Shown here: in pieces, positions 46,431 through 61,377 of the stretch
Layout: the number at the start of each line of letters is the position of its first letter
How positions within the stretch are numbered: position 1 is the stretch's first letter
DNA from: Syntrophales bacterium
GTDB taxonomy: Bacteria > Desulfobacterota > Syntrophia > Syntrophales > UBA2210
Length of the DNA stretch: 64,000 nucleotides
NCBI GenBank assembly: GCA_963666365.2
Contig: CAXXNF010000001.1
Location: 1,152,001 to 1,216,000, forward strand
Direction: 5' to 3'
Notes under the pieces: model-generated
What the model was told of the DNA's origin: nothing
Seen by the model: only the letters and a program-made list of their open reading frames with translations
Databases searched by the model: none
Program-made: the position numbers and the translations under genes

Positions 46431-48584
46431 TCAGGACAGGCGTCCTAGTGTACCAACTAATCCAAGAACGATCAACAGCTTACAGAGAAGCACAAGCAGG
46501 CAGGTTCCCACGATCCCCAAAATCGGAACCAGAAGAAGACTTACCGCAACGGCGCCCAGACTTCCACCGATCAGATCAGCAGCATACAGTGACCCGGCCG
46601 CCTTTTGCGGGACCATCCCAAGGAGTCGTGCGGCAACGGGAAATTCGGCGCCTGTCAGCGCCCCCGCAATGATCGTGAGCAGCGCAAGCGTCCCGGGCGC
46701 AAGCACAGCCACACCCCAGCGAAGAAGGCATATCAGCATCACAAGGTAGCATAGGGTGACCACTTCGATGGAGAGCAACGAACGGAGCTGCACCGATTCC
46801 CGCCGGTTCGCGCACCAGCTTCCCAGGGCGAGACCGCACATAAAAGCGGCAATGATCAGACCGATACCGGTATAGACGCTCCCGTGCAGAATCTGATAGC
46901 AGAGGAGGATGATCACCTCGATCGACGAGGCGGCAAAACCTGTGACAAAGATGGTCTTCTGAATCATTCCGATACGATACAAATAGAGGGCGCACAGGAT
47001 CGCCGCCACGAGAAGTCCCGTGCCATGGCGTTCCTGGAACTGGGCCAGCCATCGCCTCATCTGATAAAGATAGGCCCAGGGATGAAAATCATCATTTGCC
47101 GGAACCTGCGGCATCAGGCTCTCCCGAAGAAAGGCTGCCCGTTCCTCCGTCACGCGCCCTCTCAAATAGCGTTCGTTCACATAGGCCGTCTCGATGCCCC
47201 GCCTTTCCGCATGTGAGGCGATATCGGCGGAGAGAGGATGATCGGAGGCGATACAGACGATCCGCTCCCCCGGAATGAAGAGGACCTGCCCCCACACTTC
47301 CTTCAGGGCATTTCCGATGGTGGAAAGAAACAGTGCCAGATCGGGGCTTATGTAATGCTCGGCGCCTGAAACCGAAAATGAGAAGACGCCTCCCGGTGTG
47401 AGAATACGCCTGACCTCACGGAAAAACTGAACGGTATAAAACCGATTCAGTTGAAGCGAAAGCGGATCGGGAAGGTCCACAATCACGGCATCGTATCGAA
47501 ACTGCGTGGTGCGTACAAATCGGCGCCCGTCCTCCGCGTGAAGATGCACCTCCCCGGGAAAGGAGTCCCTGAGATGTCGCGAGGCGGCATCGATAATCTC
47601 CGGGTCGAGTTCCACATAATCGAGCCGGACCGGACGGTATTTCATTATCTCGCGCACCGTGCCGCCGACGCCTCCCGCCACCAGCAGGACCTCATCGATA
47701 TTTTCCCTCTGCAGCAGAGCGAAGTGCACCGCTTCTTCGCTTTCGACAATATTGGGAGTTGAAAAGAGGTGTCCCCCGTTTTCGAAAAAGGATATCTGTT
47801 CGCGGTCCTTCGTCACAACGATGCGCCCGTAAGGCGATTCCCGGTAATCGAGGATTGTCTGTTCCGGATAGAGCCACTTGATTGTCGTTGCATCGAGGGG
47901 AATCAGCCACATCACACCCATAAGGACAAGCATGCCCGCAACGGCGGGGGCGCTGCGCCGGACGCGCCGGGACGGCCCGTCACACCCGATGAAAAGGGCG
48001 GCTGCCAGGCAGAGAAGGGCAGGAACAAACAGAAGGTCTAAATTTGTCATCCATCGGACCAGCAGAAAGGTAAAGAGAAGTCCTCCCAGAATATCGCCGA
48101 TATTGTCAAAGAAATAGACCTCTCCGACGCTTCTGCCGTCCGCTTCGCGGGAAGGCAGCACGGCACAGGCCAGGGTCAGAAGCCCCCCGGTGACGAGACA
48201 GTAGGGGGCAAGGAGGAGGGCGGCCCAGAGAAACAGTGCACCCGGCGCCGGCAGTTCCCCCGGAATAAATGCGACATTCCGCACGAGCCTGATCAGGACA
48301 ATATGTGCGATGGGAAAGAGGGCAACCAGGGGAAGGGAAAGGCGAAAGAGGGTCATCTGAAGTGCAGGCGCGGTCACAAAACGGCCGAGCCATGCACCCA
48401 GACCGGAAAAGAGGAGCCAGAGTGAGATGAGGATCCCCAGGACGAGTTCATTCCCCGCAAAACAGTTGATGAACTCCCGAATCACCGTAATCTGGGTGAT
48501 TACGTGTGAAATCCCCAGGGCCGTCACGGCACAATAGAGGGGAATCGACGCATTTCGATACCGCACCGGAAAGACCTCCGCCAC
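46431..48584 (-). CDS. Polytopic membrane protein with a central spermidine-synthase-like (class I SAM-binding fold) domain
   Basis: N- and C-terminal TM bundles; ESPYGRI, VLLVAGGVGG, VELDPEII, EDGRRFV, YDAVIVDLPDP and NRFYT..FF motifs. Confidence 0.85.
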   Translation of the reverse strand: MAEVFPVRYRNASIPLYCAVTALGISHVITQITVIREFINCFAGNELVLGILISLWLLFSGLGAWLGRFVTAPALQMTLFRLSLPLVALFPIAHIVLIRLVRNVAFIPGELPAPGALFLWAALLLAPYCLVTGGLLTLACAVLPSREADGRSVGEVYFFDNIGDILGGLLFTFLLVRWMTNLDLLFVPALLCLAAALFIGCDGPSRRVRRSAPAVAGMLVLMGVMWLIPLDATTIKWLYPEQTILDYRESPYGRIVVTKDREQISFFENGGHLFSTPNIVESEEAVHFALLQRENIDEVLLVAGGVGGTVREIMKYRPVRLDYVELDPEIIDAASRHLRDSFPGEVHLHAEDGRRFVRTTQFRYDAVIVDLPDPLSLQLNRFYTVQFFREVRRILTPGGVFSFSVSGAEHYISPDLALFLSTIGNALKEVWGQVLFIPGERIVCIASDHPLSADIASHAERRGIETAYVNERYLRGRVTEERAAFLRESLMPQVPANDDFHPWAYLYQMRRWLAQFQERHGTGLLVAAILCALYLYRIGMIQKTIFVTGFAASSIEVIILLCYQILHGSVYTGIGLIIAAFMCGLALGSWCANRRESVQLRSLLSIEVVTLCYLVMLICLLRWGVAVLAPGTLALLTIIAGALTGAEFPVAARLLGMVPQKAAGSLYAADLIGGSLGAVAVSLLLVPILGIVGTCLLVLLCKLLIVLGLVGTLGRLS

Positions 48585-48684
48585 GAAAATGGATGGACTT
48601 GCCTGATTCGCTCATTGAACTCCTGCAGAATATCTCTAATACCGGATTTTATCAACACCGGACTGGCACATAGCCAGCGGACCG

Positions 48685-49806
48685 TTACTGAAATAACCGC
48701 CGGTATTCCCCGTAGCCTTCCTTTTCCAGATCCTCCAGGGGAATGAACCGAAGGGCCGCCGAATTGAGACAGTATCTCCTTCCCGCAGGGGGTGGGCCGT
48801 CGGGAAATACATGCCCCAGATGCGAGTCGCCCCGCCTGCTGCGCACTTCCGTCCGCAGCATCAACAATGTGCGATCCTCCCGCTCCACGATATTGTCCGG
48901 CTCCAGCGGCCTGGTAAAGCTGGGCCAGCCGGTGTTCGAATCATACTTGTCGAGCGAACTGAAGAGGGGCTCTCCGGAAACAATATCCACGTAGATTCCC
49001 GCTTTCTTGTTGTTCCAGTACTCATTGTCAAATGCCCGTTCCGTCCCTTCGCGCTGCGTTACCTCGAACTGGAGCGGGGTGAGCCGTTTCCGCAGCGCCT
49101 CATGACTCGGTTTGGCGTAGCCGTCCGATCCGGACGCACATTCCGGGCGCGGGCGCTCGTCGCTCCATGCCTTTTTCAGAAAGGCATCCCGGCCGGAACC
49201 GCTGCGGTAGTTTCTGTAGCGAATCGCCTGTTTCTTGTAAAAATCCTGATGGTACTCTTCAGCCTTGTAAAAAGTGGTGAATTTTACTATCTCCGTGGCA
49301 ATGGGTTTCGTAAAGAGACCTGTTTTTTCAAGGGCCTGCTTCGATTCTTCCGCCAGGCGCCTCTGCTCCTCGTCATGGTAAAATATCGCACTTCGATACT
49401 GCGACCCCCTGTCGACAAATTGACCCGACCCGTCGGTAGGATCGATATGACGCCAGAACACATCGAGCAGTTCCCTGTAGGAAATTCTGCGGGGATCGTA
49501 AATCACCTGCACCGCCTCGGCATGCCCCGTGGCGCCGCCCGCTACCTCCTCATAGGTTGGATGTTCCCTGTGACCGCCGGTATACCCCGATATGGCTTCG
49601 AGCACACCCTCCACTTTCTCAAAATCGGACTCTACACACCAGAAACAGCCCCCCGCAAAGGTCGCCACGGCAGTCTCTTCAGCTTGTACGTTCATGATAT
49701 CCTCCTTCTTTTTTTCAGTCCCTTCATCCGCAAAGGGATACAGTCTCACAATAAAAAGCCCCATGATCAGGATAACTGCCACAAGGGCCATTCGGTTCCT
49801 TTTCAT
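48685..49806 (-). CDS. msrAB: Bifunctional peptide-methionine sulfoxide reductase MsrA/MsrB with an N-terminal signal or anchor
   Basis: AGGCFWC and AEEYHQ (MsrA); GWPSF, HLGHVF and RYCLNS (MsrB); ATG 49806 with GGAGGAGG. Confidence 0.93.
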
Positions 49807-50124
49807 CGTGTTCCTCCTCCATGAAAGACGGGGATGGTGTGCACAGGCGCCCATCATACCGTTCCCTGTTTTTTCTTTCACCTTAATATAATCACCCTTT
49901 GCGTCATTGCATAATCACAACACCCGTATCAGGTTCTTGCGCACTTCCTGAAGGAAGAATCGCCATCGCCATGGGTGTTCGTCCTGATGGGGAAACTGAC
50001 TATTTCTAAAATGCCGTTGACATCATAATGGTCATCATCTATAGTTCACGGCAAGGTTCTATTCATCAATTCAAAGAGATATAAAAATACGTTGACATGA
50101 CCGGGTTGGCATATTTTTTCACCA

Positions 50125-50826
50125 TTGAAGGACATTGAGAAACTGGTGCTTGGCGAAGCGGCGGAACGGATGGTTCCTGCGGGGGACGCCGGCGATAGGG
50201 GAGTGCTCATTCATCCCGATGTGCTGGATGCCTTTCAGCTCCTGCGCAGTGATGCGGGAAAAGAGGGATTCGATCTCAGAATCCATTCAGGGTTCCGGTC
50301 GTTTGACGGGCAGCTCACCATCTGGAACCGGAAAGTCCGTGGAGAACTGGCGGTTCTCGATGATCATTCAAAAAAGATACCTGTCGACACCGTACACAAA
50401 AAGGATTTACTGTTTTACATTCTGCGCTGGTCGGCATTGCCGGGTGCAAGCAGGCACCACTGGGGGACGGAAATCGACTACTACGAATTTAACGGGTGCG
50501 CGGCCGGCAGAAAAATCGATCTTATTCCCGAAGAATATCGAGACAGCGGGCCCTGTGCACGAGCCGACCGCTGGCTCAATTCCTGCATTGCCGAAAAAAA
50601 GGCGCACTCCTTTTTCAAACCCTATGCCCGTGACAGGGGAGGAGTGCACCCCGAACCGTGGCATCTGAGCTGGGCGCCTCTGGCCGACCACTGTCAGAAC
50701 GCACTGAAGGCCGATCTTCTCCTTGCAAAACTGCAGGCCTCTCCCATTCTGCTGAAAGAGTTCATTGTCGACGCCTATCCTGAAATATGGAACAGGTTCG
50801 TCATCAATGTGGAAAGTTCCGGATGA
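50125..50826 (+). CDS. M15-family (VanY-like) D-Ala-D-Ala carboxypeptidase
   Basis: SGFRS, PGASRHHWGTEID (HxxxxxxD) and EPWH (ExxH) motifs. Confidence 0.88.
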   Translation: MKDIEKLVLGEAAERMVPAGDAGDRGVLIHPDVLDAFQLLRSDAGKEGFDLRIHSGFRSFDGQLTIWNRKVRGELAVLDDHSKKIPVDTVHKKDLLFYILRWSALPGASRHHWGTEIDYYEFNGCAAGRKIDLIPEEYRDSGPCARADRWLNSCIAEKKAHSFFKPYARDRGGVHPEPWHLSWAPLADHCQNALKADLLLAKLQASPILLKEFIVDAYPEIWNRFVINVESSG

Positions 50827-51518
50827 TGCTGACCAGTACACTGCCCTACCCTTCAAAAATATTCGGCACGACTCGCACCGGTCTGCCGCTGGAATATTTC
50901 ACCGGATCGGCACAGGAGAACCGGAAGGGCGGCCTGCTTCTCATCGCCGGGACTCACGGTGATGAAGCTGACGGCGTGTTCGTGCTGAGCAGAGCGCTGC
51001 GGGCTTGCGCCGCTCTGAGAAATTGCACGGTGGTGCTGTGCACCAATCCCGAAGGCCTATTGAGGGGAACAAGGGCAAACAGAAGGGGCGTGGACCTGAA
51101 CCGGAACTTTCCGTCACGAAACTGGAGATCGCAGCCCGTGATGGTGCGGTCCTTTGCCGACGGACCGAGAGATCTCGCCCACTCTCCCGGAGACAGTCCC
51201 TCGTCGGAACCCGAAACGCGTCATCTGCTGGCACTGTTGAGCGAACTCAAGCCCAACCATATCATCTCTCTCCATTCGCCGCTGGGCTGCGTCGACGCGC
51301 CGAAAGAGAACCGCCTGGCCGATTTTCTGGCAGCAAAAACCGGTTTACGGCGGGTCTATGAAATCGGATACGAAACTCCCGGATCCTTTGGAAGCTGGGC
51401 CGCTGAGAACGGCCACAGGCTCGTCACCTTCGAGCTGCCGAAACAAGGCGGTGAAGATCTGGTCAGAAACTATTCACCGGTGTTCGCCGGATTAATGGAA
51501 AATGGAATGGATGGCTGA
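50823..51518 (+). CDS. mpaA: Murein tripeptide amidase MpaA (M14 family)
   Basis: GTHGDE, TRANRRGVDLNRNFP, SEPET, SLHSPL and GYETPGSFGSW motifs; ATGA overlap with the upstream gene. Confidence 0.85.
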   Translation: MMLTSTLPYPSKIFGTTRTGLPLEYFTGSAQENRKGGLLLIAGTHGDEADGVFVLSRALRACAALRNCTVVLCTNPEGLLRGTRANRRGVDLNRNFPSRNWRSQPVMVRSFADGPRDLAHSPGDSPSSEPETRHLLALLSELKPNHIISLHSPLGCVDAPKENRLADFLAAKTGLRRVYEIGYETPGSFGSWAAENGHRLVTFELPKQGGEDLVRNYSPVFAGLMENGMDG

Positions 51519-51519
51519 C

Positions 51520-52752
51520 ATGGCACTCAATTACATTTGGGTCGGTTTTTTCATAATCGCCTTCGTGACGGCCTTGATCAAACTCATTTTCCTGGGCGAC
51601 CTGCAGGTTTTCTCCGAGATAATGAATGCAACCTTTTCGATGTCTAAAACGGCCTTTGAGATTGCGCTGGGCCTGACAGGCGTGCTGACCTTCTGGATGG
51701 GGATAATGAAAATCGGTGAAGCCGGCGGCGTAATCGGCCTGTTGACGAAACTTGTTCGGCCCTTTTTCAGCCGGCTCTTTCCCGGAGTCCCGGCGGACCA
51801 TCCCGTACACGGTTCGATGGTGATGAATTTCGCGGCGAACATGCTGGGTCTGGACAACGCCGCGACACCGATCGGGCTCAAGGTCATGCAGCAGCTTCAG
51901 AAACTGAACCCCTCGCGGGTCGAGGCCTCGGATGCGCAGATCATGTTTCTCGTTCTGAACACTTCGGGCCTGACGCTGATACCTGTCGGCATTATGGTCT
52001 ATCGGGCACAGGCCGGCGCTGCAAATCCCGCTGATATCTTTATTCCGATACTGCTCGCGACGTTCTTTTCGACACTGGCCGGATTGCTGGCGGTCGCGGC
52101 ATACCAGAAGATCAATCTTTTCGACCGGGTACTCATGGCGTATCTGTTAGCCGGGTGCGCGGTGATCGGCGGTCTGTTATGGTATTTTTCATCCCTTCCG
52201 CAGGAGCAACTGTCGCTCCTGTCGACCGCCGTCGCCAGCGTGATTCTTTTTTCGGTCATCTCATTGTTCATTCTGACGGCAGTCGTGAAAAGGGTCAACG
52301 TCTACCAGTGCTTTGTGGAAGGTGCGAAAGACGGTTTTTCCATCGCCGTCAAGATAATCCCCTATCTGGTGTCGATGCTGGTCGCGATCGCCGTCTTCCG
52401 TGCTTCCGGCATCATGGATGTGCTCCTGGAAGGGGTAAAGGGGTTCGTGAATCTCTTCGGATTCGACAGCAGATTCGTCGATGCCCTGCCCACGGCGATG
52501 ATGAAACCACTTTCGGGCAGCGGCGCACGCTCAATGATGGTCGATGCAATGACGGTCCACGGTGCGGACTCTTTCGTCGGCCGCCTGGCTTCGACCTTTC
52601 AGGGGGCGACGGACACAACGTTTTATATCATCGCCGTATACTTCGGATCGGTCGCTATCAGAAAAACACGTCACGCGGTCGTCTGCGGGCTCATAGCCGA
52701 TGCCGCAGGCATCATCGCTGCGGTTTTCATCGCCTATCTGTTCTGGGGATGA
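51520..52752 (+). CDS. Fused SpmA-SpmB (nucleoside-recognition Gate domain) membrane protein
   Basis: ANMLGLDNAATPIGLK (SpmA) and KPLSGSGAR..TDTTFY..AVYFG (SpmB) in one chain. Confidence 0.9.
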   Translation: MALNYIWVGFFIIAFVTALIKLIFLGDLQVFSEIMNATFSMSKTAFEIALGLTGVLTFWMGIMKIGEAGGVIGLLTKLVRPFFSRLFPGVPADHPVHGSMVMNFAANMLGLDNAATPIGLKVMQQLQKLNPSRVEASDAQIMFLVLNTSGLTLIPVGIMVYRAQAGAANPADIFIPILLATFFSTLAGLLAVAAYQKINLFDRVLMAYLLAGCAVIGGLLWYFSSLPQEQLSLLSTAVASVILFSVISLFILTAVVKRVNVYQCFVEGAKDGFSIAVKIIPYLVSMLVAIAVFRASGIMDVLLEGVKGFVNLFGFDSRFVDALPTAMMKPLSGSGARSMMVDAMTVHGADSFVGRLASTFQGATDTTFYIIAVYFGSVAIRKTRHAVVCGLIADAAGIIAAVFIAYLFWG

Positions 52753-52927
52753 AGAGGCCGGCCGGCTTTTTATCCATGTACAGCGGTTGCGCAAAAAAAT
52801 TAAATCCGGCGCACATTTTACCCCATTTCGCAATTCCCGCGCTTCTCCTTGACAGACCTGCGGCAATCCCATATATTTTCACCCATTATTACTTATGGTT
52901 CAGACATGCCTGACGGGATGAAGACAC

Positions 52928-53686
52928 ATGGCCAAAATCACCGCAATTCATTCGTTTCGCGGCGGCACGGGAAAATCGAACACCACCGCCAATATCGCCG
53001 CACTGATTGCCGCACAAGGCATGCGGGTAGGCGTGGTGGATACGGATATCCAGTCCCCCGGCATCCACGTACTGTTTCGCTTCGATCCGAACCGGGCAAC
53101 CTATTCCCTGAACGACTATCTCTGGGGGAAGTGTGATATTATCCATACGGCCCATGACGTAACGTCGCTGGTGGACAGCCGCATGGAGGGGAAAATTTAT
53201 CTTATACCCTCCAGTGTAAAAACAGGCGATATCGCGCGGGTTCTGCATTACGGCTACGACGTGAATCTGCTGCGAGAGGGCTTTCTGAAACTGATCGACG
53301 CGCTGGCCCTCGACTATCTTTTTATCGATACGCACCCGGGACTGAATGAGGAAACACTTCTGTCGATCGCGCTTTCCGATACCATGATTATCATTCTCAG
53401 ACCGGATCAACAGGATTATCAGGGAACGGCGGTAACCGTCGAAATATCGAGACAGCTCGATCTTCCCCGGATTTTCCTTGTGCTCAACAAGGTTCCCCCT
53501 GCCTGGAGCAGGCAGACCTTGGCTGCAAAGGCCGCTGAAACCTACGGCTGCGAGGTGGCGGGCGTGCTTCCTCACAGCGATGACATGATGACACTGGCAA
53601 GCGCGGGGATATTCATAACAAAGTACAGGGATCACACGCTTACGCGGGAATTTGAGGCCATCGCCCGCAAAATAGGAGAGGCATAA
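52928..53686 (+). CDS. MinD/ParA-family ATPase
   Basis: HSFRGGTGKS deviant Walker A, VDTDIQSPG, IDTHPG and LNK motifs. Confidence 0.9.
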   Translation: MAKITAIHSFRGGTGKSNTTANIAALIAAQGMRVGVVDTDIQSPGIHVLFRFDPNRATYSLNDYLWGKCDIIHTAHDVTSLVDSRMEGKIYLIPSSVKTGDIARVLHYGYDVNLLREGFLKLIDALALDYLFIDTHPGLNEETLLSIALSDTMIIILRPDQQDYQGTAVTVEISRQLDLPRIFLVLNKVPPAWSRQTLAAKAAETYGCEVAGVLPHSDDMMTLASAGIFITKYRDHTLTREFEAIARKIGEA

Positions 53687-53770
53687 CGACATCGGGAAGT
53701 AAATCCGCCGTCATTACAGGACGGCGGCACCGTTCCGGAACGCACAGATTTGTGAAAAACGTGACATACT

Positions 53771-54832
53771 ATGATTACACCGGCAACACTCATCGGGTTC
53801 AATAATGACAACTCCCGCAAAACCCTGTTCGCGGCGGGTCTCACCTGGGCCTGCCTGTATGGTTTCCTGAACCTCCTGTCAAACACGTTCGTCCTTCCCG
53901 CCGCTCCGGTTATTGCCCTGCGACCTCAGATTGCCATTCCCATGACCGTAGGAATTATTTTCGGCCCTGCGGCGGGGTTTCTGACCGGCTGCCTGGGGAA
54001 CATACTGGGGGACGCGCTTTCCGGATACGGAATTATGACCTTCTGGAACTGGCATATCGCCAACGGTCTTATGGGATTTGTACCCGGCCTCATCCGTTAT
54101 CTCAAAGTACAGGACATTTGCACCGTCTGGGATTTTGCGATACTGCAGATTGCCGTCGTCGGCGCCAGCGCCTTTGCCGTGGGCGCCGCCGTAGTGCTGG
54201 ATATATGCTGTATTCACGTGATGAAGTTTCCCGAGTCGGTAAATTCGTGGATACTTCCTGCGTTCATTACCGATGCCGTCAACGGATTCGTGCTGGTCCC
54301 GCTCCTGCTTCTCGCACTGCGACGGGTCGTCGTCACGCTGGAAATCCGCACAATCCTCATGGTAAGCTTCCTGCTGGTAGCAGCCATACTGAGCACATCG
54401 ATGGCCATTACCTGGTCCGTGTGGGATATACTGATTTCAAAGGCTGCCATGATCGATACGTTTTACTTCGCCGGCATCCTTTCGGTAGTGCTGCTCAGTG
54501 CCGGATTTACCGCGGCGGTGTTCTTTGTGCGGCGCATTACCCTGCCCATCAAGGGACTCACCCGGACAGCGCAATCGGTGGAAAAGGGGAACTATGACAC
54601 GGAGCCGCTTGATTCCCTTTCTCAACGCTCCGACGAACTGGGACATCTGTCGAAGGTGTTTCAGCATATGATCGAAGAAGTACACGGCCGGGAGGAAAAA
54701 TTGCAGCGCCAGGTTGAAGAGCTGCAGATCGAAATAGACAGGAAGCAGCAGGCCCGGGATGTTGCGGAAATCGTGGATTCCGATTATTTCCAGCACCTGC
54801 GAAAGAAGGTAAAAGAATTCAGAAAACCCTGA
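53771..54832 (+). CDS. ECF S-component-like membrane domain fused to HAMP and a coiled-coil tail
   Basis: FGPAAGFLTG..GNILGDAL..WNW..GLMGF.PG (S component); ITLPIKGL..GNYD..DELGHLSKVFQHM (HAMP); about 50-aa tail with no catalytic domain. Confidence 0.8.
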   Translation: MITPATLIGFNNDNSRKTLFAAGLTWACLYGFLNLLSNTFVLPAAPVIALRPQIAIPMTVGIIFGPAAGFLTGCLGNILGDALSGYGIMTFWNWHIANGLMGFVPGLIRYLKVQDICTVWDFAILQIAVVGASAFAVGAAVVLDICCIHVMKFPESVNSWILPAFITDAVNGFVLVPLLLLALRRVVVTLEIRTILMVSFLLVAAILSTSMAITWSVWDILISKAAMIDTFYFAGILSVVLLSAGFTAAVFFVRRITLPIKGLTRTAQSVEKGNYDTEPLDSLSQRSDELGHLSKVFQHMIEEVHGREEKLQRQVEELQIEIDRKQQARDVAEIVDSDYFQHLRKKVKEFRKP

Positions 54833-54848
54833 AAAGGAGTGCAGAGCA

Positions 54849-55805
54849 ATGAGAGCAGTCCTATTTGACGGCGCCCTTCGCTATGAACCTGACCATCCGA
54901 CGCCATCGGCGCCACCGGGATGGGCACTGATCCAGGTCAGAACGGCGGGCATCTGTAAAACGGACATGGAACTGACAAAGGGGTACATGGGATTCAAGGG
55001 TATCCTGGGGCACGAATTTATCGGCACGGTTGCACAGTGCGACGACCCGCAGTGGATCGGAAAATCGGTGGTGGGAGAGATCAACGCCGCCTGCGGCTCC
55101 TGTGAATGGTGCGCCCGCGGACTGGGGCGCCACTGCCCCCATAGACGCACACTGGGGATCGACCGCCTTGACGGATGCATGGCCGATTACTGTATACTGC
55201 CGGTGGCCAATCTTCTCGAAATTCCGTCCGAGCTCTCCGAAAACCGCGCGATATTGACGGAACCGCTTTCCGCTGCCTGCGAAATCCTGGAGCAACTGCC
55301 ACTGAGCGGCACGGAACGGGCGGTGGTGCTCGGAGACGGACGCCTCGGCATTCTCTGCGCCTGGGTGCTGGCCACGATGCTTTCCGATGTCGCCATTATC
55401 GGACATCACCCGGAAAAACTCGCCCTGGCGGCCTGGCGTCATATACAACAGGCATCTTCCCCCGATGAAATTGCCGGGAATGTCGATATCATCGTCGAAG
55501 CCACCGGTTCGGGACAGGGCATTGTGGAGGCGATGGCCTTGTGCCGTCCGCGGGGAACGATTGTGCTGAAATCAACGGTCGCTCTTCAGGGCGACGTCAA
55601 TCTCGCGCCGATAGTCATCAACGAACTGACGGTGCTCGGCTCCCGTTGCGGACAGTTCAAGGATGGGCTGCAGGTGCTGGCTGACTACCCGGATATGCCG
55701 GTGGAGCGGCTCATCACCGCACGATATCCCATCGAAGAAGTCGAAAGGGCCTTCACTCGGGCCACCGAGCGTGACGCTCTGAAGGTGCTGCTGGATCTTA
55801 CATAG
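54849..55805 (+). CDS. Zinc-dependent medium-chain dehydrogenase (MDR)
   Basis: GICKTD, GHE, CGSCEWC.......C and GDGRLG motifs. Confidence 0.9.
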   Translation: MRAVLFDGALRYEPDHPTPSAPPGWALIQVRTAGICKTDMELTKGYMGFKGILGHEFIGTVAQCDDPQWIGKSVVGEINAACGSCEWCARGLGRHCPHRRTLGIDRLDGCMADYCILPVANLLEIPSELSENRAILTEPLSAACEILEQLPLSGTERAVVLGDGRLGILCAWVLATMLSDVAIIGHHPEKLALAAWRHIQQASSPDEIAGNVDIIVEATGSGQGIVEAMALCRPRGTIVLKSTVALQGDVNLAPIVINELTVLGSRCGQFKDGLQVLADYPDMPVERLITARYPIEEVERAFTRATERDALKVLLDLT

Positions 55806-55829
55806 AGGACTGGTATCTACAGGACAAGG

Positions 55830-58415
55830 ATGACGGCTATGGCAGGCAATGTGGGCGACCTCCTGCAAAAACTGATTCGGGAAGAGCGGCAGGGTGAAAA
55901 GACGCTGTCGGGGACTTTCTCCGCTCCGGGACATCTTACCACCCTGGGCGCACCGCTCATCCCGGTGGCGGAAGGACGCTACAGGATAGATATTACGGGA
56001 ATACGGGTATTGAGAAACCTTTCGACCTTTATTCACCTGCTGACCGGCGAGGTGCTCGAGCAGTGCGGCTTCGGCGTCACCGATATCATGGTAAAAAGAA
56101 AAGTGGATGCCCATCTGACTCCGGAACTCTCGGAGGCCGGAGTAGATTGGGTGATGGTCTACGCCAGACTCGACGCCGCAGAGCATCTGCCGCGTTATCA
56201 CAATTCATTCAACCGGGACATGCAGCTCATCTTCAGCATGCTCCAGACCGTCCGATGGGGCGGACTTCTTTTCCCGGATTTCTTCAATCTCGATGCCGGC
56301 GCGAAAGACGCCCCTCTCCCGGCCCTCCTTTTTCCTTTTCACCTGGATATCGCCGACAGGGAAGAAAGCCATTACATGCTTCTGGAGTTCAACCGTCCGG
56401 GACGGTTTCTTCGTGTGACAATCGAGGATGCCCCATCGTCACGATTGCAGTTGAAGCATATTTCTCACCGGGTCGTCGACAATATACATCGTGCGGCCTA
56501 TCTCCCCCCCGATATGCACCATATTGCCGGACAGATTCACCAGGGCATTCTGAGAGAATGCTTCAACAATCGGACCGAATACAAGGAAACGCCGGATCGG
56601 CAATCGGCGCTCTTTGACCACCTTCGACAGGGGGGGTTGGACAGGCTGGGATCACTCTATTTTCGATGGACCATCGAAGATATTCAACCGCTTATTCTCA
56701 GGGAAAATGAGGGCCCATCCCTCAATGAAGCGCAGGCGCTTCTGCACAAAGAACTCATGCTCCTCCAGGACCCGGATGTGCGTTTCCAGTTGCACGAGGG
56801 ACACATCATCGAAATGCAGGCCGATCAGTATCGTGTCTTTTTCTCCCTCTCCCGTCGTCACACCTGTCTCAACATCAGCCTGAGCGAAGAACCCCATTTC
56901 ACTACCCTGAACGATTATTTCGAGAAAATGCCCCTCCTGAAAGAGGCAGCCGTCCAGCGGGAAGGATCACTTCATGGTGTGCGTCTTTTTCTGATTCATC
57001 ATATTACGGCGGAGGTGCTCGGGCTTATCAGGGCCTTTCAAAAAGCCGGATGTGAGTTCATCACCACCCTGTTTGTAAAATACGCCGGCGTCGTACCCGA
57101 CGAGTACTTTGAAACAATCCTTTCCCTCCCCGACGATTCCTTTCGGTTCTGTGGAATTCACAGGATAGAAACGCCGCGCACCATGGAAAGCCGTTATGTG
57201 ATATCACAGCAGTATTCCGATATTTCAGACCTGCAGTTCCTCGACACAATACTGTGGGAGGAACGACGCGATTTCAAGGATGCCATGCGTCTGGTAGCGG
57301 GTCATCTCTTCTTTGAAGAGGCGATTCGCTGTAGAAAAGCGGGAATCACCCTTCTACTGGTGGAGGACGGCGGATATCTGTCGCCTCTGATCAACAGATT
57401 CTGCCTGGAACAAAAGACGCTGGGCGACGTGCTGCGCGCTTTTCACGTTGATGCCGCCGCCGAGGGGAATCCCGATCTTGCATTGCCGGAAGAAGACTGT
57501 GAGGCGCCCGTGGCGGAGTGGCTGGCTGAAATATTTGCAGGCACTGTCGAACACACAAAAAACGGTCACGACGAGAACGCAGAGGTAATGCATGAATACG
57601 GAACACTTCGCTTTCCTCTTGCGAGCATTGCCGTATCCCGTCTCAAACGGGGCCCGGAGGCAAAGGAGTGTGCGATTGCCATACTCAACGCCGTCGAAAA
57701 CATCCTGCACCGTCAGGGATTGCTCCTGTCTCGGCGGCGGGCCCTGGTGATCGGTTCATCAGGCGCAATCGGACGGCGCCTTATAGATGAGCTCTCCCAT
57801 CGCCTGATCGAAGCACCTCCCGCCGGCGTCGACATCGCCGCATCAGACATCGCTACAACGCACCTGGAAGTCAGGACCCTTGAAGAACTTGACAGAAGTA
57901 TCCTTTATGGCATCGATATGATAATCGGCGCCGCCGGCAGGTCCGTGATGACGGCAACGACACTTGCGGATATGCTGATAGAGGGCGCGCAAGAATTCCT
58001 CTATTTTGTGAGCGGTTCGACGAAAACGGTGGAATTCACCGAAGTGGAAACGTGGCTTCACTCGCTGATGGCGCAAAAAAATCCCCGCATTGCAGGTCAT
58101 CATATCGAGATCGCCCACGCACCGCTGCGGGACCTGCAGACATCGGCACTTCTGGGACATGAGGTACGGATCGCATTTTCCGACGGCGCCATCCCGCCCA
58201 AACGGCTCTACCTTCTGGGCGAACTGACGCCCATTAATTTCCTCTACTACGGAATCCCCAGAGAGATTCTCGATGACGTCATGCGCCATCTCTTCCGGGT
58301 ATCCGTCGGGTTGATAGAAAGAAAAAAAGCGGGGGAACCGCTTCCCCGCCGGCTCCTCGCCGTCGATCACGACATCGATATGGATGCACGGCGGATCGAC
58401 GCCCCGTTCTCTTGA
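55830..58415 (+). CDS. Protein with an unknown N-terminal region and a divergent S-adenosylhomocysteine-hydrolase-like C-terminal region
   Basis: HITAE (HxTxE), EDGGY, VEHTKNG, SRLK and Rossmann VIGSSGAIG occur in AhcY order. Confidence 0.62.
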   Translation: MTAMAGNVGDLLQKLIREERQGEKTLSGTFSAPGHLTTLGAPLIPVAEGRYRIDITGIRVLRNLSTFIHLLTGEVLEQCGFGVTDIMVKRKVDAHLTPELSEAGVDWVMVYARLDAAEHLPRYHNSFNRDMQLIFSMLQTVRWGGLLFPDFFNLDAGAKDAPLPALLFPFHLDIADREESHYMLLEFNRPGRFLRVTIEDAPSSRLQLKHISHRVVDNIHRAAYLPPDMHHIAGQIHQGILRECFNNRTEYKETPDRQSALFDHLRQGGLDRLGSLYFRWTIEDIQPLILRENEGPSLNEAQALLHKELMLLQDPDVRFQLHEGHIIEMQADQYRVFFSLSRRHTCLNISLSEEPHFTTLNDYFEKMPLLKEAAVQREGSLHGVRLFLIHHITAEVLGLIRAFQKAGCEFITTLFVKYAGVVPDEYFETILSLPDDSFRFCGIHRIETPRTMESRYVISQQYSDISDLQFLDTILWEERRDFKDAMRLVAGHLFFEEAIRCRKAGITLLLVEDGGYLSPLINRFCLEQKTLGDVLRAFHVDAAAEGNPDLALPEEDCEAPVAEWLAEIFAGTVEHTKNGHDENAEVMHEYGTLRFPLASIAVSRLKRGPEAKECAIAILNAVENILHRQGLLLSRRRALVIGSSGAIGRRLIDELSHRLIEAPPAGVDIAASDIATTHLEVRTLEELDRSILYGIDMIIGAAGRSVMTATTLADMLIEGAQEFLYFVSGSTKTVEFTEVETWLHSLMAQKNPRIAGHHIEIAHAPLRDLQTSALLGHEVRIAFSDGAIPPKRLYLLGELTPINFLYYGIPREILDDVMRHLFRVSVGLIERKKAGEPLPRRLLAVDHDIDMDARRIDAPFS

Positions 58416-58468
58416 CACGCGAGAAACTGTTGCAAGGCGCATCAAAAAAAGAAAAGGATAAAATCGCC

Positions 58469-59539
58469 ATGAAAAAAATTACATTGGTCGTTATCGTGTG
58501 CACTGTGCTTTCGCTCCTCTATGTCGCCTCCCCTGTCCTTGCCGCCGAAAAAATCGTCTGGCGGGCCCAGTCCAGCTATTCGGCGGGACTTCCCCAGCTT
58601 TACTCGCCTGCCGCCTATTTTGCTAAAAATATAGAAAGGCTGACCGATGGACGTCTCGTGGTCCGGCTCTCGCCGGGAGGAGCCGTCGTCCCCGCCCTGA
58701 AGGTGTTCGACGCCGTCAGCGCCGGTACCCTCGATATAGGGTTTACCTGGGCCGGCTGGTGGGTGGGTAAATTTCCCGCCTCGGTCCTCTTCGCCAACTC
58801 CTATCCCAACGGTCTTCAGACGCAGGAGATGCTCGGATGGATCTATACGGGAGGGGGACTTGATCTCTGGAACGAGCTGTACCGGGGGCATGGTGTGAAG
58901 GTGCTTCCCCCCTACGGCATGCTGGGATCGGAAAATTTCTGCTGGTCCCACAAGCCGATCAGATCACTGGAGGATTTCAAGGGCTTGAAATTCAGGACCG
59001 TGGGCATCTGGGGACAGTGTCTTGAACGCCTGGGCGCCCGTGTGGTCACGCTTCCCGGCGCCGAAGTCTATCCCGCGCTGGAACGCGGAGTTATCGATGC
59101 CTGCGAATTCGGCACCCCGGCCATCGACAAAAAGTTCGGCTTTGAGGAAATCTGCACATATCTCCTGCTCCCGGGCATTCATGAGCCCTGCGCCCCCCTG
59201 GAAACGCTGGTCAACAAAAAGTCATGGGAAAAACTCCCCCCCGACCTGCAGTACAAGGTACAGATCCTGCTCCGCGAATCCTGTTTCCAGGCAATGAATC
59301 GCGCCCTGAAAGAAGACGCCGAAGCTATGGAGTATTTCAGGAACTACAAGGGGCTCCATGTTTCGAAACTCTCGCCTGAAATGCTTGCGGGAATCACCCG
59401 TATCGGTGATGCGGTACTAAAGGAACATGCGGAAAAAGATCCCCTCTTCGCCAAAATTTTACAGTCGCAGATCGCCTTCAGAAAAAAGGTGGAACCTTAC
59501 GCGGAACTGGTGCGAATCCCCTATCCCTATGCAAAGTAA
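58469..59539 (+). CDS. dctP: TRAP transporter solute-binding protein
   Basis: Signal peptide; PIRSLEDFKGLKFR and EVYPALERGVIDA motifs. Confidence 0.92.
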   Translation: MKKITLVVIVCTVLSLLYVASPVLAAEKIVWRAQSSYSAGLPQLYSPAAYFAKNIERLTDGRLVVRLSPGGAVVPALKVFDAVSAGTLDIGFTWAGWWVGKFPASVLFANSYPNGLQTQEMLGWIYTGGGLDLWNELYRGHGVKVLPPYGMLGSENFCWSHKPIRSLEDFKGLKFRTVGIWGQCLERLGARVVTLPGAEVYPALERGVIDACEFGTPAIDKKFGFEEICTYLLLPGIHEPCAPLETLVNKKSWEKLPPDLQYKVQILLRESCFQAMNRALKEDAEAMEYFRNYKGLHVSKLSPEMLAGITRIGDAVLKEHAEKDPLFAKILQSQIAFRKKVEPYAELVRIPYPYAK

Positions 59540-59545
59540 GATAGT

Positions 59546-60052
59546 ATGGCCGTTATCGCAAAATGTATTGACCATGTAAGCGCCCTGTCGGGAAAAATCG
59601 CGGCATGGCTCTGCCTTGTCCTGATAGGAGAACTCGTCTACGATACAGTTGCCCGCTACGGATTCAACGCCCCGACCGAGTGGTCCTATGACATTTCCTA
59701 CATGTTCTGTGGAACACTCTTTATGATCGGCGCCTCCTGGACCCTGCTTCAGGGTGAACATGTGCGCATAGGTATTTTCTATGACCGGGCGTCGCCTCGC
59801 GTCCAGGCGGCACTTACCATTGCCGGGTATATTGTATTCTTTTTCCCCTCGATGGCAGCGCTTCTCTGGTATGGGGCCGACTTCGCGCTCGCCTCCTGGC
59901 GGATGCAGGAACATGCCGGCGTCAGTATGTGGTCGCCGCCGATTTATCCTTTCAAGACCATCATTCCGATCGCCGCGCTGCTGTTACTGCTTCAGGGATC
60001 GGTGCTCTTCGCGCGCACAACAGTCCGGCTCGTGAAAGGCGAACCCTCATGA
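59546..60052 (+). CDS. dctQ: TRAP transporter small permease
   Basis: RYGFNAPTEW and HVRI motifs; four TM segments. Confidence 0.9.
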   Translation: MAVIAKCIDHVSALSGKIAAWLCLVLIGELVYDTVARYGFNAPTEWSYDISYMFCGTLFMIGASWTLLQGEHVRIGIFYDRASPRVQAALTIAGYIVFFFPSMAALLWYGADFALASWRMQEHAGVSMWSPPIYPFKTIIPIAALLLLLQGSVLFARTTVRLVKGEPS

Positions 60053-61377
60053 GCCTCAGCCCGGGAATGCTTATCATCATGCTCTTTGCCGGCCTGATTA
60101 TCGGTCTTGCGATGGGATTTCCCGTACCCTTCGTCATGCTCGGCGTTTCAATGGCCGTGGGAGTAGCGGGGACCGGAACGGCATATTTTCCCATGATGAT
60201 TCTCCGCATTTTCGATACCATGCAGAACTACATCCTGATCGCCATCGTGCTGTTTGTCTTCATGGGCATTATGCTGGAGCGGTCGGGCGCGGCGGAACGC
60301 ATGTTCTCGGCGGCCCATATTCTTCTGGGCGGTCTGCGCGGCGGTCTTGCCGTCGCCGTTGTGCTTGTCTGTACGATTATGGCGGCCGCGACGGGCATCA
60401 TGGGCGCCCCCGTGATCATTATGGGACTCTTTGCGCTGCCCGAAATGTTGAAACGCGGATACGATCCCACCCTCAGCTCCGGAACCATCTGTGCGGGAGG
60501 CACCCTGGGCATTCTCATACCGCCCAGCATCATGCTGGTTGTCTACGGGCCCATGGCCGGTCTTTCGGTAGGAAAACTCTTCATGGGCGCGGTCATTCCC
60601 GGCTTGGTCCTGGCAGCCCTCTATACTGTATATATTCTGGGAGTGTGTCGGCTGAACCCGGGAAAAGGACCGGCGCTGCCGCCGGAATTACGCAGAACCC
60701 CGGCAAGAGCGAAGATTTTCATGACCGTCACATCGCTCTTCCCGACGCTCATCCTTATCTTCTCCGTACTCGGAACGATTTTCTTCGGCATCGCGGCGCC
60801 TACGGAAGCGGCCGCCGTTGGGGCGGCGGCCAGTCTGCTTCTGGCGCTTGCCTATGGAACACTCACCTGGCAGACTCTCAGAGAGGCCCTGTACCGAACC
60901 GTGACCGTATCGAGTATGATCATGCTGATCGTGGCCGCCGCCTTCGTCTTCACGGGAACGTTCATGCTTGTGGGCGGCGGCGATCTGGTGAAGGAAGGGC
61001 TTATGGAGCTGCCCATAGGGCGCTGGGGCATCTTTCTCGTCATGGCTGCGGCCTTCTTTGCCTTCGGTCTCTTCATGGAGTGGGTCGGCATCGTGCCGAT
61101 CCTGGTGCCTATTTTCGCCCCCCTTATCATCGAACTGGACTTCAACCCCCTTTGGGCAGCTGTTATTTTTTGCGTGGTGATGCAGACATCCTTCCTGACG
61201 CCCCCCATGGCGCCGGCCCTCTTTTATCTCAAGGGGGTCGCCCCGGAGAACATCGGATTCGGACGTCATATTGTGAAGGGTGCGGTCCCCTTTATCGCAC
61301 TGCAGCTCATCGGCATCATGCTGCTGATCCTCTTTCCAGAGCTGATCCTGTGGCTCCCGGAAATGATGTTCCGATAA
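60049..61377 (+). CDS. dctM: TRAP transporter large permease
   Basis: GTLGILIPPS, APTEAAAVG and SFLTPP motifs; ATGA overlap with dctQ. Confidence 0.92.
   Translation: MSLSPGMLIIMLFAGLIIGLAMGFPVPFVMLGVSMAVGVAGTGTAYFPMMILRIFDTMQNYILIAIVLFVFMGIMLERSGAAERMFSAAHILLGGLRGGLAVAVVLVCTIMAAATGIMGAPVIIMGLFALPEMLKRGYDPTLSSGTICAGGTLGILIPPSIMLVVYGPMAGLSVGKLFMGAVIPGLVLAALYTVYILGVCRLNPGKGPALPPELRRTPARAKIFMTVTSLFPTLILIFSVLGTIFFGIAAPTEAAAVGAAASLLLALAYGTLTWQTLREALYRTVTVSSMIMLIVAAAFVFTGTFMLVGGGDLVKEGLMELPIGRWGIFLVMAAAFFAFGLFMEWVGIVPILVPIFAPLIIELDFNPLWAAVIFCVVMQTSFLTPPMAPALFYLKGVAPENIGFGRHIVKGAVPFIALQLIGIMLLILFPELILWLPEMMFR

Follow-up and report, generated by a model that had tools for sequence, protein, structure and literature searches.

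Background

In the MinD, ParA and McdA systems, the ATPase is controlled by another protein through a short helical peptide, and the peptides of MinE, ParB and McdB in particular control the nucleotide state of their ATPases. In FleN/FlhG, which works with FleQ/FlrA, a MinD-like ATPase serves as a regulatory switch on another protein and not for division. In TadZ/CpaE, a receiver-like input is coupled to a MinD-like ATPase, and in the bacterial tyrosine kinases (BY-kinases) of the CapA-CapB type, a MinD-related P-loop protein is activated by the cytoplasmic C-terminus of the membrane protein encoded beside it. Here we describe an ATPase of this superfamily (P0001) and the membrane sensor encoded next to it (P0002), which are a real and probably new signalling module. 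Both lie in a stretch of 64,000 nucleotides from a Syntrophales bacterium (assembly GCA_963666365.2, contig CAXXNF010000001.1, positions 1,152,001 to 1,216,000 of the forward strand), hereafter called the window, and all positions are counted from its first letter. An initial annotation of the window had proposed that the C-terminal tail of the sensor is its output and recruits or activates the ATPase, and both open reading frames (ORFs) were found where it had placed them. The prefixes P, L and G denote proteins, loci and genomes of our collections.

52928..53686, + strand: ATPase P0001 of the MinD/ParA superfamily, Arg-type subfamily, 252 aa (profile matches and alignment)
52952..52978, + strand: Walker A motif SFRGGTGKS, residues 9-17, with Arg11 at the signature Lys position and the P-loop Lys16 retained
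53771..54832, + strand: sensor P0002, 353 aa, with an S-component-like domain, two further membrane segments, a HAMP domain and the tail
53879..54322, + strand: S-component-like domain of the energy-coupling factor (ECF) type, PF07155, residues 37-184, the sole PF07155 domain in the genome
54521..54685, + strand: HAMP domain, residues 251-305 (Pfam; matches of the transmembrane-HAMP unit to NarQ, Af1503 and HtrII)
54686..54829, + strand: conserved C-terminal tail, 48 residues, 306-353, reading RE..L......L.IEID and then V.EI...DYF..L..K....R

P0001 shares its superfamily with the ATPases of MinD-MinE, ParA-ParB and McdA-McdB, and the control proposed for it, exerted by a short helix of another protein, would be of their kind; the repeated unit of the tail, about 20 residues with an invariant Arg, is similar in size to the MinE, ParB and McdB peptides. 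However, P0001 has Arg for the signature Lys, has no extension past the core, scores far under the MinD and ParA model cut-offs and belongs to a genome without MinE. Moreover, the peptide here is the C-terminus of sensor proteins and not a dedicated partner. By this analogy, a switch of the MinD/ParA type that is operated by the peptide of a partner would be of a known kind, and its use as the common output of sensors would be what is new.

The other systems are more distant. A PDB sequence search with P0001 matched FleN chains (E 3e-9), but FleN has the signature Lys and serves flagellar regulons, whereas no flagellar genes were found near P0001 in the ORF scans of the window; we know of no sensor tail that feeds into FleN. 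TadZ/CpaE resembles the present case and shows that an ATPase of this class can be coupled to sensory domains, yet its input is fused to the ATPase and its role is pilus assembly, while the inputs here are separate proteins with a common tail; a CpaE-type NCBIfam model matched P0001 at an E of 1.6e-4 only. BY-kinases gave weak PDB matches to P0001 (4jmp and 3bfv, E 5e-6), but P0001 has no C-terminal tyrosine cluster and the similarity is confined to the P-loop region.

We show herein that the tail is a real, shared C-terminal module present on many sensor types, and that it is tied genomically and phyletically to a subfamily of ATPases with Arg at the signature Lys position. In the reading that we favor, at a probability of about 0.6, the S-component-like domain of the membrane protein would be a small-molecule receptor, whose signal would pass through the two further membrane helices and the HAMP domain to the 48-residue tail. 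The tail would be the output, engaging the adjoining ATPase and setting its ATP- or ADP-bound state, by analogy with the partner peptides mentioned above. The ATPase would in turn act on a client, for which the best candidate is an 861-aa protein of the same apparent operon, recognized through an extra N-terminal peptide, together with a Zn-dependent dehydrogenase.

Results and discussion

The tail as a shared module

No Pfam or NCBIfam model matches the tail. A profile of 51 rows (A4), comprising the tail of the window and those of the ATPase loci considered below, matched 2478 representatives out of 1.84 billion at E<=1e-3, of which 1409 reached E<=1e-10, a representative standing for a cluster at 50% identity. 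In 138 of the 149 best representatives, no more than 30 residues follow the tail. In the own genome of P0002, a tail profile matched one of 52,695 six-frame ORFs (E 2e-22; next best, E 0.8), and that single ORF starts 84 bp past the stop codon of the only Arg-type ATPase gene of the genome. Eighty ATPase loci yielded 52 tail ORFs, distributed over 42 loci and with the tail always near the C-terminus. Fifty of the 52 proteins were scanned with Pfam, the two dropped being that of L037 (a duplicate of L035) and, from L073, a fragment of 48 aa at the edge of a contig. Their input domains were as follows.

cNMP-binding: 14/50
HAMP only, behind membrane segments: 13/50
GAF, with or without Cache, CHASE3 or HAMP: 9/50
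Receiver (three with HisKA): 7/50
S-component plus HAMP: 5/50
No family: 2/50

Among 93 representatives of at least 180 aa, HAMP was found in 63, GAF in 15, dCache_1 in 14, and receiver and S-component domains in four each, with a few each of PG_binding, HisKA, CHASE2/3, nSTAND1, WD40 and a T6SS domain (counts drawn from the 25 commonest of 89 matched families). The conservation that the initial annotation had anticipated for the tail was therefore borne out by the profile, and across many sensor architectures. In P0235 and P0234, the second half of the tail, EI..DYF..L..KA...R, is repeated alone (six and three matched stretches, respectively), and for that reason the second helix, with its invariant Arg, is the likely functional unit. 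Invariant residues of the tail are D323, I334 and R351. The carriers of these tandem repeats are a CHASE2 protein and an nSTAND NTPase, and P0233 carries two whole tails. A search of the Atlas with the tail alone returned unnamed clusters, at 0.80 or below.

An element of comparable size and setting is the S-helix, a helical coiled-coil of about 40 residues that follows HAMP, GAF or PAS-type domains, is defined by an ERT signature located in the central heptad, and joins the input domain to a downstream signalling domain (PMC1592074). In comparison, the tail has no ERT, carries IEID and DYF signatures instead and occupies a terminal position. An S-helix identity was rejected on these grounds, the tail being C-terminal in 138/149 proteins rather than lying between domains.

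An ATPase subfamily with Arg at the signature position

P0001 is a member of the ParA/MinD superfamily by Pfam scores above the curated cut-offs, as it matched PF10609, PF13614 and PF01656 with 62.3, 58.9 and 54.5 bits, respectively (cut-offs, 27.1, 27 and 25.4). It departs from the KGGxGK[ST] signature in having Arg in place of the Lys. This substitution, which had been pointed out in the initial annotation, was confirmed by alignment to the closest solved sequence, A. fulgidus MinD-1 (1hyq; E 4e-17 in a PDB sequence search), where the Arg falls onto the signature Lys. The motif [FY]RGGTGKS was present in 121/121 sequences, i.e., the query and the 120 best hits listed (F in 120, Y in one), and the Arg is therefore no local quirk. 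All 8000 scored candidates of the family search were significant, and P0001 is 62-70% identical to members whose source names are Syntrophales, Smithellaceae, Anaerolineae or Chloroflexota. Sequence comparison thus marks the Arg-type ATPases as a distinct, highly conserved subfamily, of which no member was found among solved structures in the PDB search. A scan with one genome per species gave at least 605 confirmed Arg-type matches, mostly from Chloroflexota; Cyanobacteria, Desulfobacterota-like metagenome-assembled genomes, Acidobacteria and others were also among the matches listed. In its own genome the Arg-type ATPase is single, and the other five MinD/ParA-like ORFs have KGG and matched at E 5e-10 or worse.

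Neither of the familiar members of the superfamily accommodates P0001. MinD proper was rejected, as the scores fell far below the equivalog cut-offs of NCBIfam (minD_bact, 55.9 vs 212.9 bits; minD_arch, 66.3 vs 201.75 bits) and the genome, 94% complete, gave no match to MinE (PF03776). A ParA partition ATPase was likewise rejected, with ParA_partition at 48 bits against a cut-off of 180 and no ParB-like ORF among the ORFs scanned from 46431 to 61377. The model for a KGGVGR-variant AAA ATPase (NF047398) also scored below its cut-off (76.4 vs 90 bits), the motif of P0001 itself being RGGTGKS. The initial annotation had reported no minC/minE, parB or flhF nearby; in agreement, none of MinC, MinE, ParB and FlhF was found among the ORFs of that same interval, to which the searches for MinC, ParB and FlhF were confined. 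It had also reported no obvious C-terminal membrane-targeting helix, and this was upheld in part. The alignment of the P0001 family profile to 1hyq covers the MinD core up to position 248/251, and P0001 therefore has no C-terminal extension of the kind that bears the membrane-targeting sequence of MinD. Nonetheless, the helix that closes the core is amphipathic (muH 0.8), and P0001 may bind the membrane through it. PADLOC returned only generic P-loop matches for P0001 and none for the sensor, the dehydrogenase or the 861-aa protein, and a defence system was rejected as a reading of the locus.

Neither the tail nor the Arg-type ATPase appears to have been described before. No description was found in the literature at the level of abstracts, subscription journals and bioRxiv supplements being outside the scope; strings such as RGGTGKS and ITETDYF did not occur in the literature texts searched; and there is no Pfam, NCBIfam or PADLOC model specific to the tail or to the ATPase subfamily.

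Linkage of the tail to the Arg-type ATPase

Identical genome samples were searched for the tail and for the Arg-type ATPase, with the following outcome.

Own phylum: 301 genomes, tail in 4, ATPase in 4, both in 4
Chloroflexota: 151 genomes, tail in 28, ATPase in 27, both in 27
Cyanobacteria: 151 genomes, tail in 22, ATPase in 22, both in 21

The same pattern recurs in three phyla, and altogether 52 of the 603 genomes had both, three had one alone and 548 had neither. Similar tails, remembered in the initial annotation from Cyanobacteria and Chloroflexi, are thus real in both groups (22/151 and 28/151 genomes). In all four positive genomes of the own phylum, the two lie on one contig, their matches some 0.9 kb apart. 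A tail ORF was found within 8 kb of the ATPase in 42/80 loci, and in 23/32 of those with full flanks, and five of five tested genomes with a tail-less ATPase locus carry 1-4 tails elsewhere. In Chloroflexota, an ATPase is encoded no more than 12 kb from 33/58 tails, and in Herpetosiphon the single tail in 6.8 Mb is about 4 kb from it. Tails are few per genome, with 1-2 in five genomes of 4.4-8.7 Mb (among them G305, an unpublished genome), so that their proximity to the ATPase is far from chance.

At closer range, 23 of the 52 tail ORFs lie no more than 110 bp from the Arg-type ATPase and on the same strand. Eleven tail ORFs adjoin paralogue B of the ATPase (48-55% identity to P0001); all 11 encode cNMP-binding proteins, and the aromatic pair of the tail is F-Y in 10 of them. 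Twelve others adjoin paralogue A (58-65% identity to P0001), and their aromatic pair is Y-F or F-F. Tail variants, in other words, track the neighboring ATPase paralogue. Co-occurrence, adjacency and paralogue-specific variants together establish the tight link between the tail and the RGGTGKS-type ATPases that the initial annotation had expected. As to its further proposal that the tail is the output to the ATPase, the genomic and phyletic side is secured, and it is from this linkage that we infer direct binding.

Two alternatives take the linkage as given and interpret it differently. In the first, the tail and the ATPase would both act on a third component without contacting each other, the third component being a winged-helix-like protein in Chloroflexota and the 861-aa enzyme here. 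A small winged-helix-like protein, with sub-threshold matches to MarR, TrmB and Penicillinase_R and a conserved G[IV]W..LD peptide at its end, often adjoins the ATPase in Chloroflexota and does so in many loci (e.g., L023:8788-9159 and L035:8777-9106, with 40 more in clusters 2 and 6). Fusions of the tail to the winged-helix-like domain, as well as the N-terminal peptide present only on coupled versions of the 861-aa protein, would fit such an arrangement. On the contrary, the tail variants follow the adjoining ATPase paralogue and not a third protein; the pair persists in its own genome, where the small winged-helix-like protein was not found (best E 1e-3); and the 861-aa protein was matched in 4/80 ATPase loci and not in the other 76. 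We therefore regard an indirect link as unlikely. With no winged-helix-like partner detected, the genome at hand appears to hold the module in its simplest form.

In the second alternative, the ATPase would be a ParA-like motor and the tail a handle by which sensors are clustered or segregated. Precedents exist in PpfA with TlpT and in ParC with chemoreceptor arrays, and ParA-type ATPases commonly recognize short terminal peptides on cargo adaptors. The presence of several tail proteins per ATPase, with up to four tail matches per genome in Chloroflexota and seven in Cyanobacteria, also suits a positioning role. However, the tail proteins lack any further output domain, and positioning alone would therefore leave them without effect. 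Many of them, furthermore, are soluble proteins with a single input (a receiver or cNMP-binding domain plus the tail), a single sensor accompanies a single ATPase in the own genome, and the ATPase showed no extension for binding DNA or membranes. Positioning of cargo is, in our estimation, somewhat less likely still.

Several observations weigh against direct signalling from the tail through the ATPase to the enzyme, which is the reading we favor. The tail is a charged helical stretch, part of which may serve dimerization only, and it was fused to the ATPase in 0/149 of the best tail proteins. Two tail proteins, P0294 and P0366, are fused to the winged-helix-like domain (E 4e-24 and 1e-20), and the tail might therefore act on this partner instead. 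Two genomes have the tail alone, namely G391 (Chloroflexota) and G457 (Cyanobacteria, with a weak match at 3e-7), one has the ATPase alone (G583, Cyanobacteria), and 25/58 tails of Chloroflexota lie away from any ATPase. Because the genomes of a phylum are related to one another, the co-occurrence counts overstate independence. Finally, the family of the 861-aa protein also occurs in 8/301 genomes that lack the tail-ATPase pair, and is in this respect independent of it.

The sensor protein

Pfam and NCBIfam scans agree with the architecture given for P0002 in the initial annotation, namely an S-like domain, further membrane segments, HAMP and the tail. The PF07155 score was 65.4 bits against a cut-off of 26.7, there are about eight hydrophobic segments in all, and the HAMP domain sits after a transmembrane helix as in HAMP receptors. 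No kinase, cyclase, phosphatase or chemoreceptor (MCP) domain was found on P0002 with either database, nor on its relatives. A PDB profile search with the sensor family gave transmembrane-HAMP matches only, and no solved S component at E<=1. The tail motif was present in 96 of 111 sensor matches, and 12 of the 15 without it (P0100 and P0102-P0112) are S-component-only proteins. P0101 has a tail like that of P0002, but behind dCache_1 and HAMP.

The lack of an output domain could also mean that P0002 is a decayed gene, i.e., a histidine kinase, phosphatase or chemoreceptor truncated before its output. NCBIfam models of kinases and of SiaA do match P0002, but in the HAMP region only and far under their cut-offs. 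About 90 relatives of 325-381 aa have identical domains and identical ends, so that P0002 is no truncated kinase; the architecture is stable, the tail is strongly conserved and the reading frame is open. Relatives of 619-2000 aa were not found, which is weak evidence in the same direction. The conserved ends and tail of the relatives already contradict gene decay, and next to no weight can be given to it.

A different possibility is that P0002 is an ordinary vitamin transporter, a group-II ECF S component served by a shared energizing module encoded elsewhere, with HAMP and the tail as accessories. Like ECF S components of the RibU type, P0002 has PF07155 over residues 37-184, above the cut-off as noted; the RibU-type NCBIfam model stayed below its own (50 vs 99 bits). 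P0002 differs from them in adding two membrane segments, HAMP and the tail, and in belonging to a genome without EcfT. The initial annotation had noted no EcfA/EcfT genes. This held for EcfT (PF02361), which was not found in the whole genome (4.0 Mb, 94% complete) by a search that was positive in 11 of 14 reference genomes; EcfA was left out of the genome search, ABC ATPases being too generic. In addition, HAMP and the tail are retained in about 90 relatives, and the tail co-occurs with the ATPase. An ordinary transporter is accordingly very improbable, and signalling through the tail to the ATPase remains the reading that we favor for P0002.

An apparent operon with a candidate client

The initial annotation took the unit to consist of two genes ending at 54832. 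This proved too short, as a dehydrogenase gene and the gene for the 861-aa protein continue from it and recur with this sensor type. Its statement that there is no enzymatic output holds for the sensor protein, but perhaps not for the operon, given these two genes.

52849..52877, + strand: promoter-like site TTGACA-17-TATATT, 11/12 consensus match, some 50 bp before the ATPase start
53705..53727, no strand assigned: G+C-rich hairpin of eight pairs in the 84-bp gap between ATPase and sensor, T-run absent on the + strand
54849..55805, + strand: Zn-dependent medium-chain dehydrogenase, 318 aa, 16 bp past the sensor
55830..58415, + strand: 861-aa protein without family assignment, directly 3' of this sensor type in relatives
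55851..55877, + strand: N-terminal peptide motif VGDLLQKLI of the 861-aa protein, in coupled versions only

The gaps between the genes for the ATPase, the sensor, the dehydrogenase and the 861-aa protein are 84, 16 and 24 bp, and no convincing terminator was seen between the four genes on the + strand. The four apparently form one operon. The promoter-like site is weak on its own, with four such sites found vs 3.6 expected in shuffles, and the hairpin may be a processing or attenuation site. The operon is conserved in relatives: the same order of four genes is found in L076 and L027, and L047 and L080 have the ATPase, the sensor and the 861-aa protein in order without the dehydrogenase. In G240 and G296, the ATPase and tail are followed by a dehydrogenase-sized gap of about 1 kb (judged from coordinates) and a match to the 861-aa protein; G108 has the same order without the gap.

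The 861-aa protein gave no Pfam, NCBIfam or PDB sequence match. Its C-terminal half contains conserved EDGGY, EHT.NG and GS.G.IG, the last in a Rossmann-like stretch. Likeness to S-adenosylhomocysteine hydrolase (SAHH) is a tentative lead: hhalign against the SAHH of the same genome gave a probability of 2.7%, and the Atlas gave leads only, at 0.89. Two loci without the pair were inspected, where the neighbors of the family are a sugar epimerase and a ROK kinase (L082) and a Zn-dehydrogenase-like ORF (L081). Since the family also occurs without the pair, it looks like an enzyme unit onto which the sensor-ATPase pair was attached. Coupled versions of the protein carry an extra N-terminal peptide of about 25 residues with the pattern [VI][GA][DS][ILM][LI]..L[IMK] in 8/8 cases, vs 0/4 uncoupled versions, those four representing two genera of one family. 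This peptide is a lead, not proof, for the way in which the ATPase would recognize its client.

A possible general route

It is tempting to extend the favored reading beyond the window. A route from sensor tail to MinD-like ATPase to client may have gone unrecognized alongside one-component, two-component and second-messenger systems, although we put this forward tentatively and at somewhat less than even odds. In such a route, output-less sensors of Chloroflexota, Cyanobacteria and Desulfobacterota-like bacteria, whether of the HAMP, GAF, Cache, receiver or cNMP-binding kind, would signal through a common helical peptide of 20 residues to an Arg-type ATPase dimer. The ATPase would control enzymes, winged-helix proteins and membrane carriers that bear short terminal peptides of their own, and the ECF S-component fold would have been recruited as the receptor in the window.

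If this is true, the tail gives a function to thousands of sensors now annotated as output-less (2478 cluster representatives), a MinD-type ATPase switch joins the known routes of bacterial signal relay, and the fold of a vitamin transporter has been reused as a receptor. The invariant Arg is of interest for how Arg-type ATPases dimerize and hydrolyze ATP, and the module can be tested directly with one peptide and one small ATPase.

Other neighbors of the ATPase

In Chloroflexota, second ATPase paralogues adjoin the Arg-type ATPase and have degenerate P-loops such as SFRPGTGKS, SFRRGAGKS and HQGAGVS (L005:8749-9540, L022:11892-12689, L004:8757-9536 and others); these are possible pseudo-ATPase partners. 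Other neighbors there include a class III cyclase-like ORF (identified by eye), a sigma factor and a TLC/MFS-like carrier. In 19 loci (cluster 5; e.g., L011:8782-10173 and L045:1190-2551), such a carrier, about 450 aa long, immediately follows the ATPase and begins with a conserved K.[IL]F..[VIM]F.L, an N-terminal peptide that may be a client peptide.

In the window, the surrounding ORFs encode a membrane spermidine-synthase-like protein, MsrAB, VanY, an M14 peptidase, a Gate-domain protein and a TRAP transporter. The first of these is a polytopic membrane protein of 717 aa (46431-48584, - strand) with an embedded spermidine-synthase-like methyltransferase domain. The genes for the VanY-type D-Ala-D-Ala carboxypeptidase and the M14 carboxypeptidase overlap by 40 bp (50125-51518), and the pair probably serves in the recycling of cell-wall peptides.

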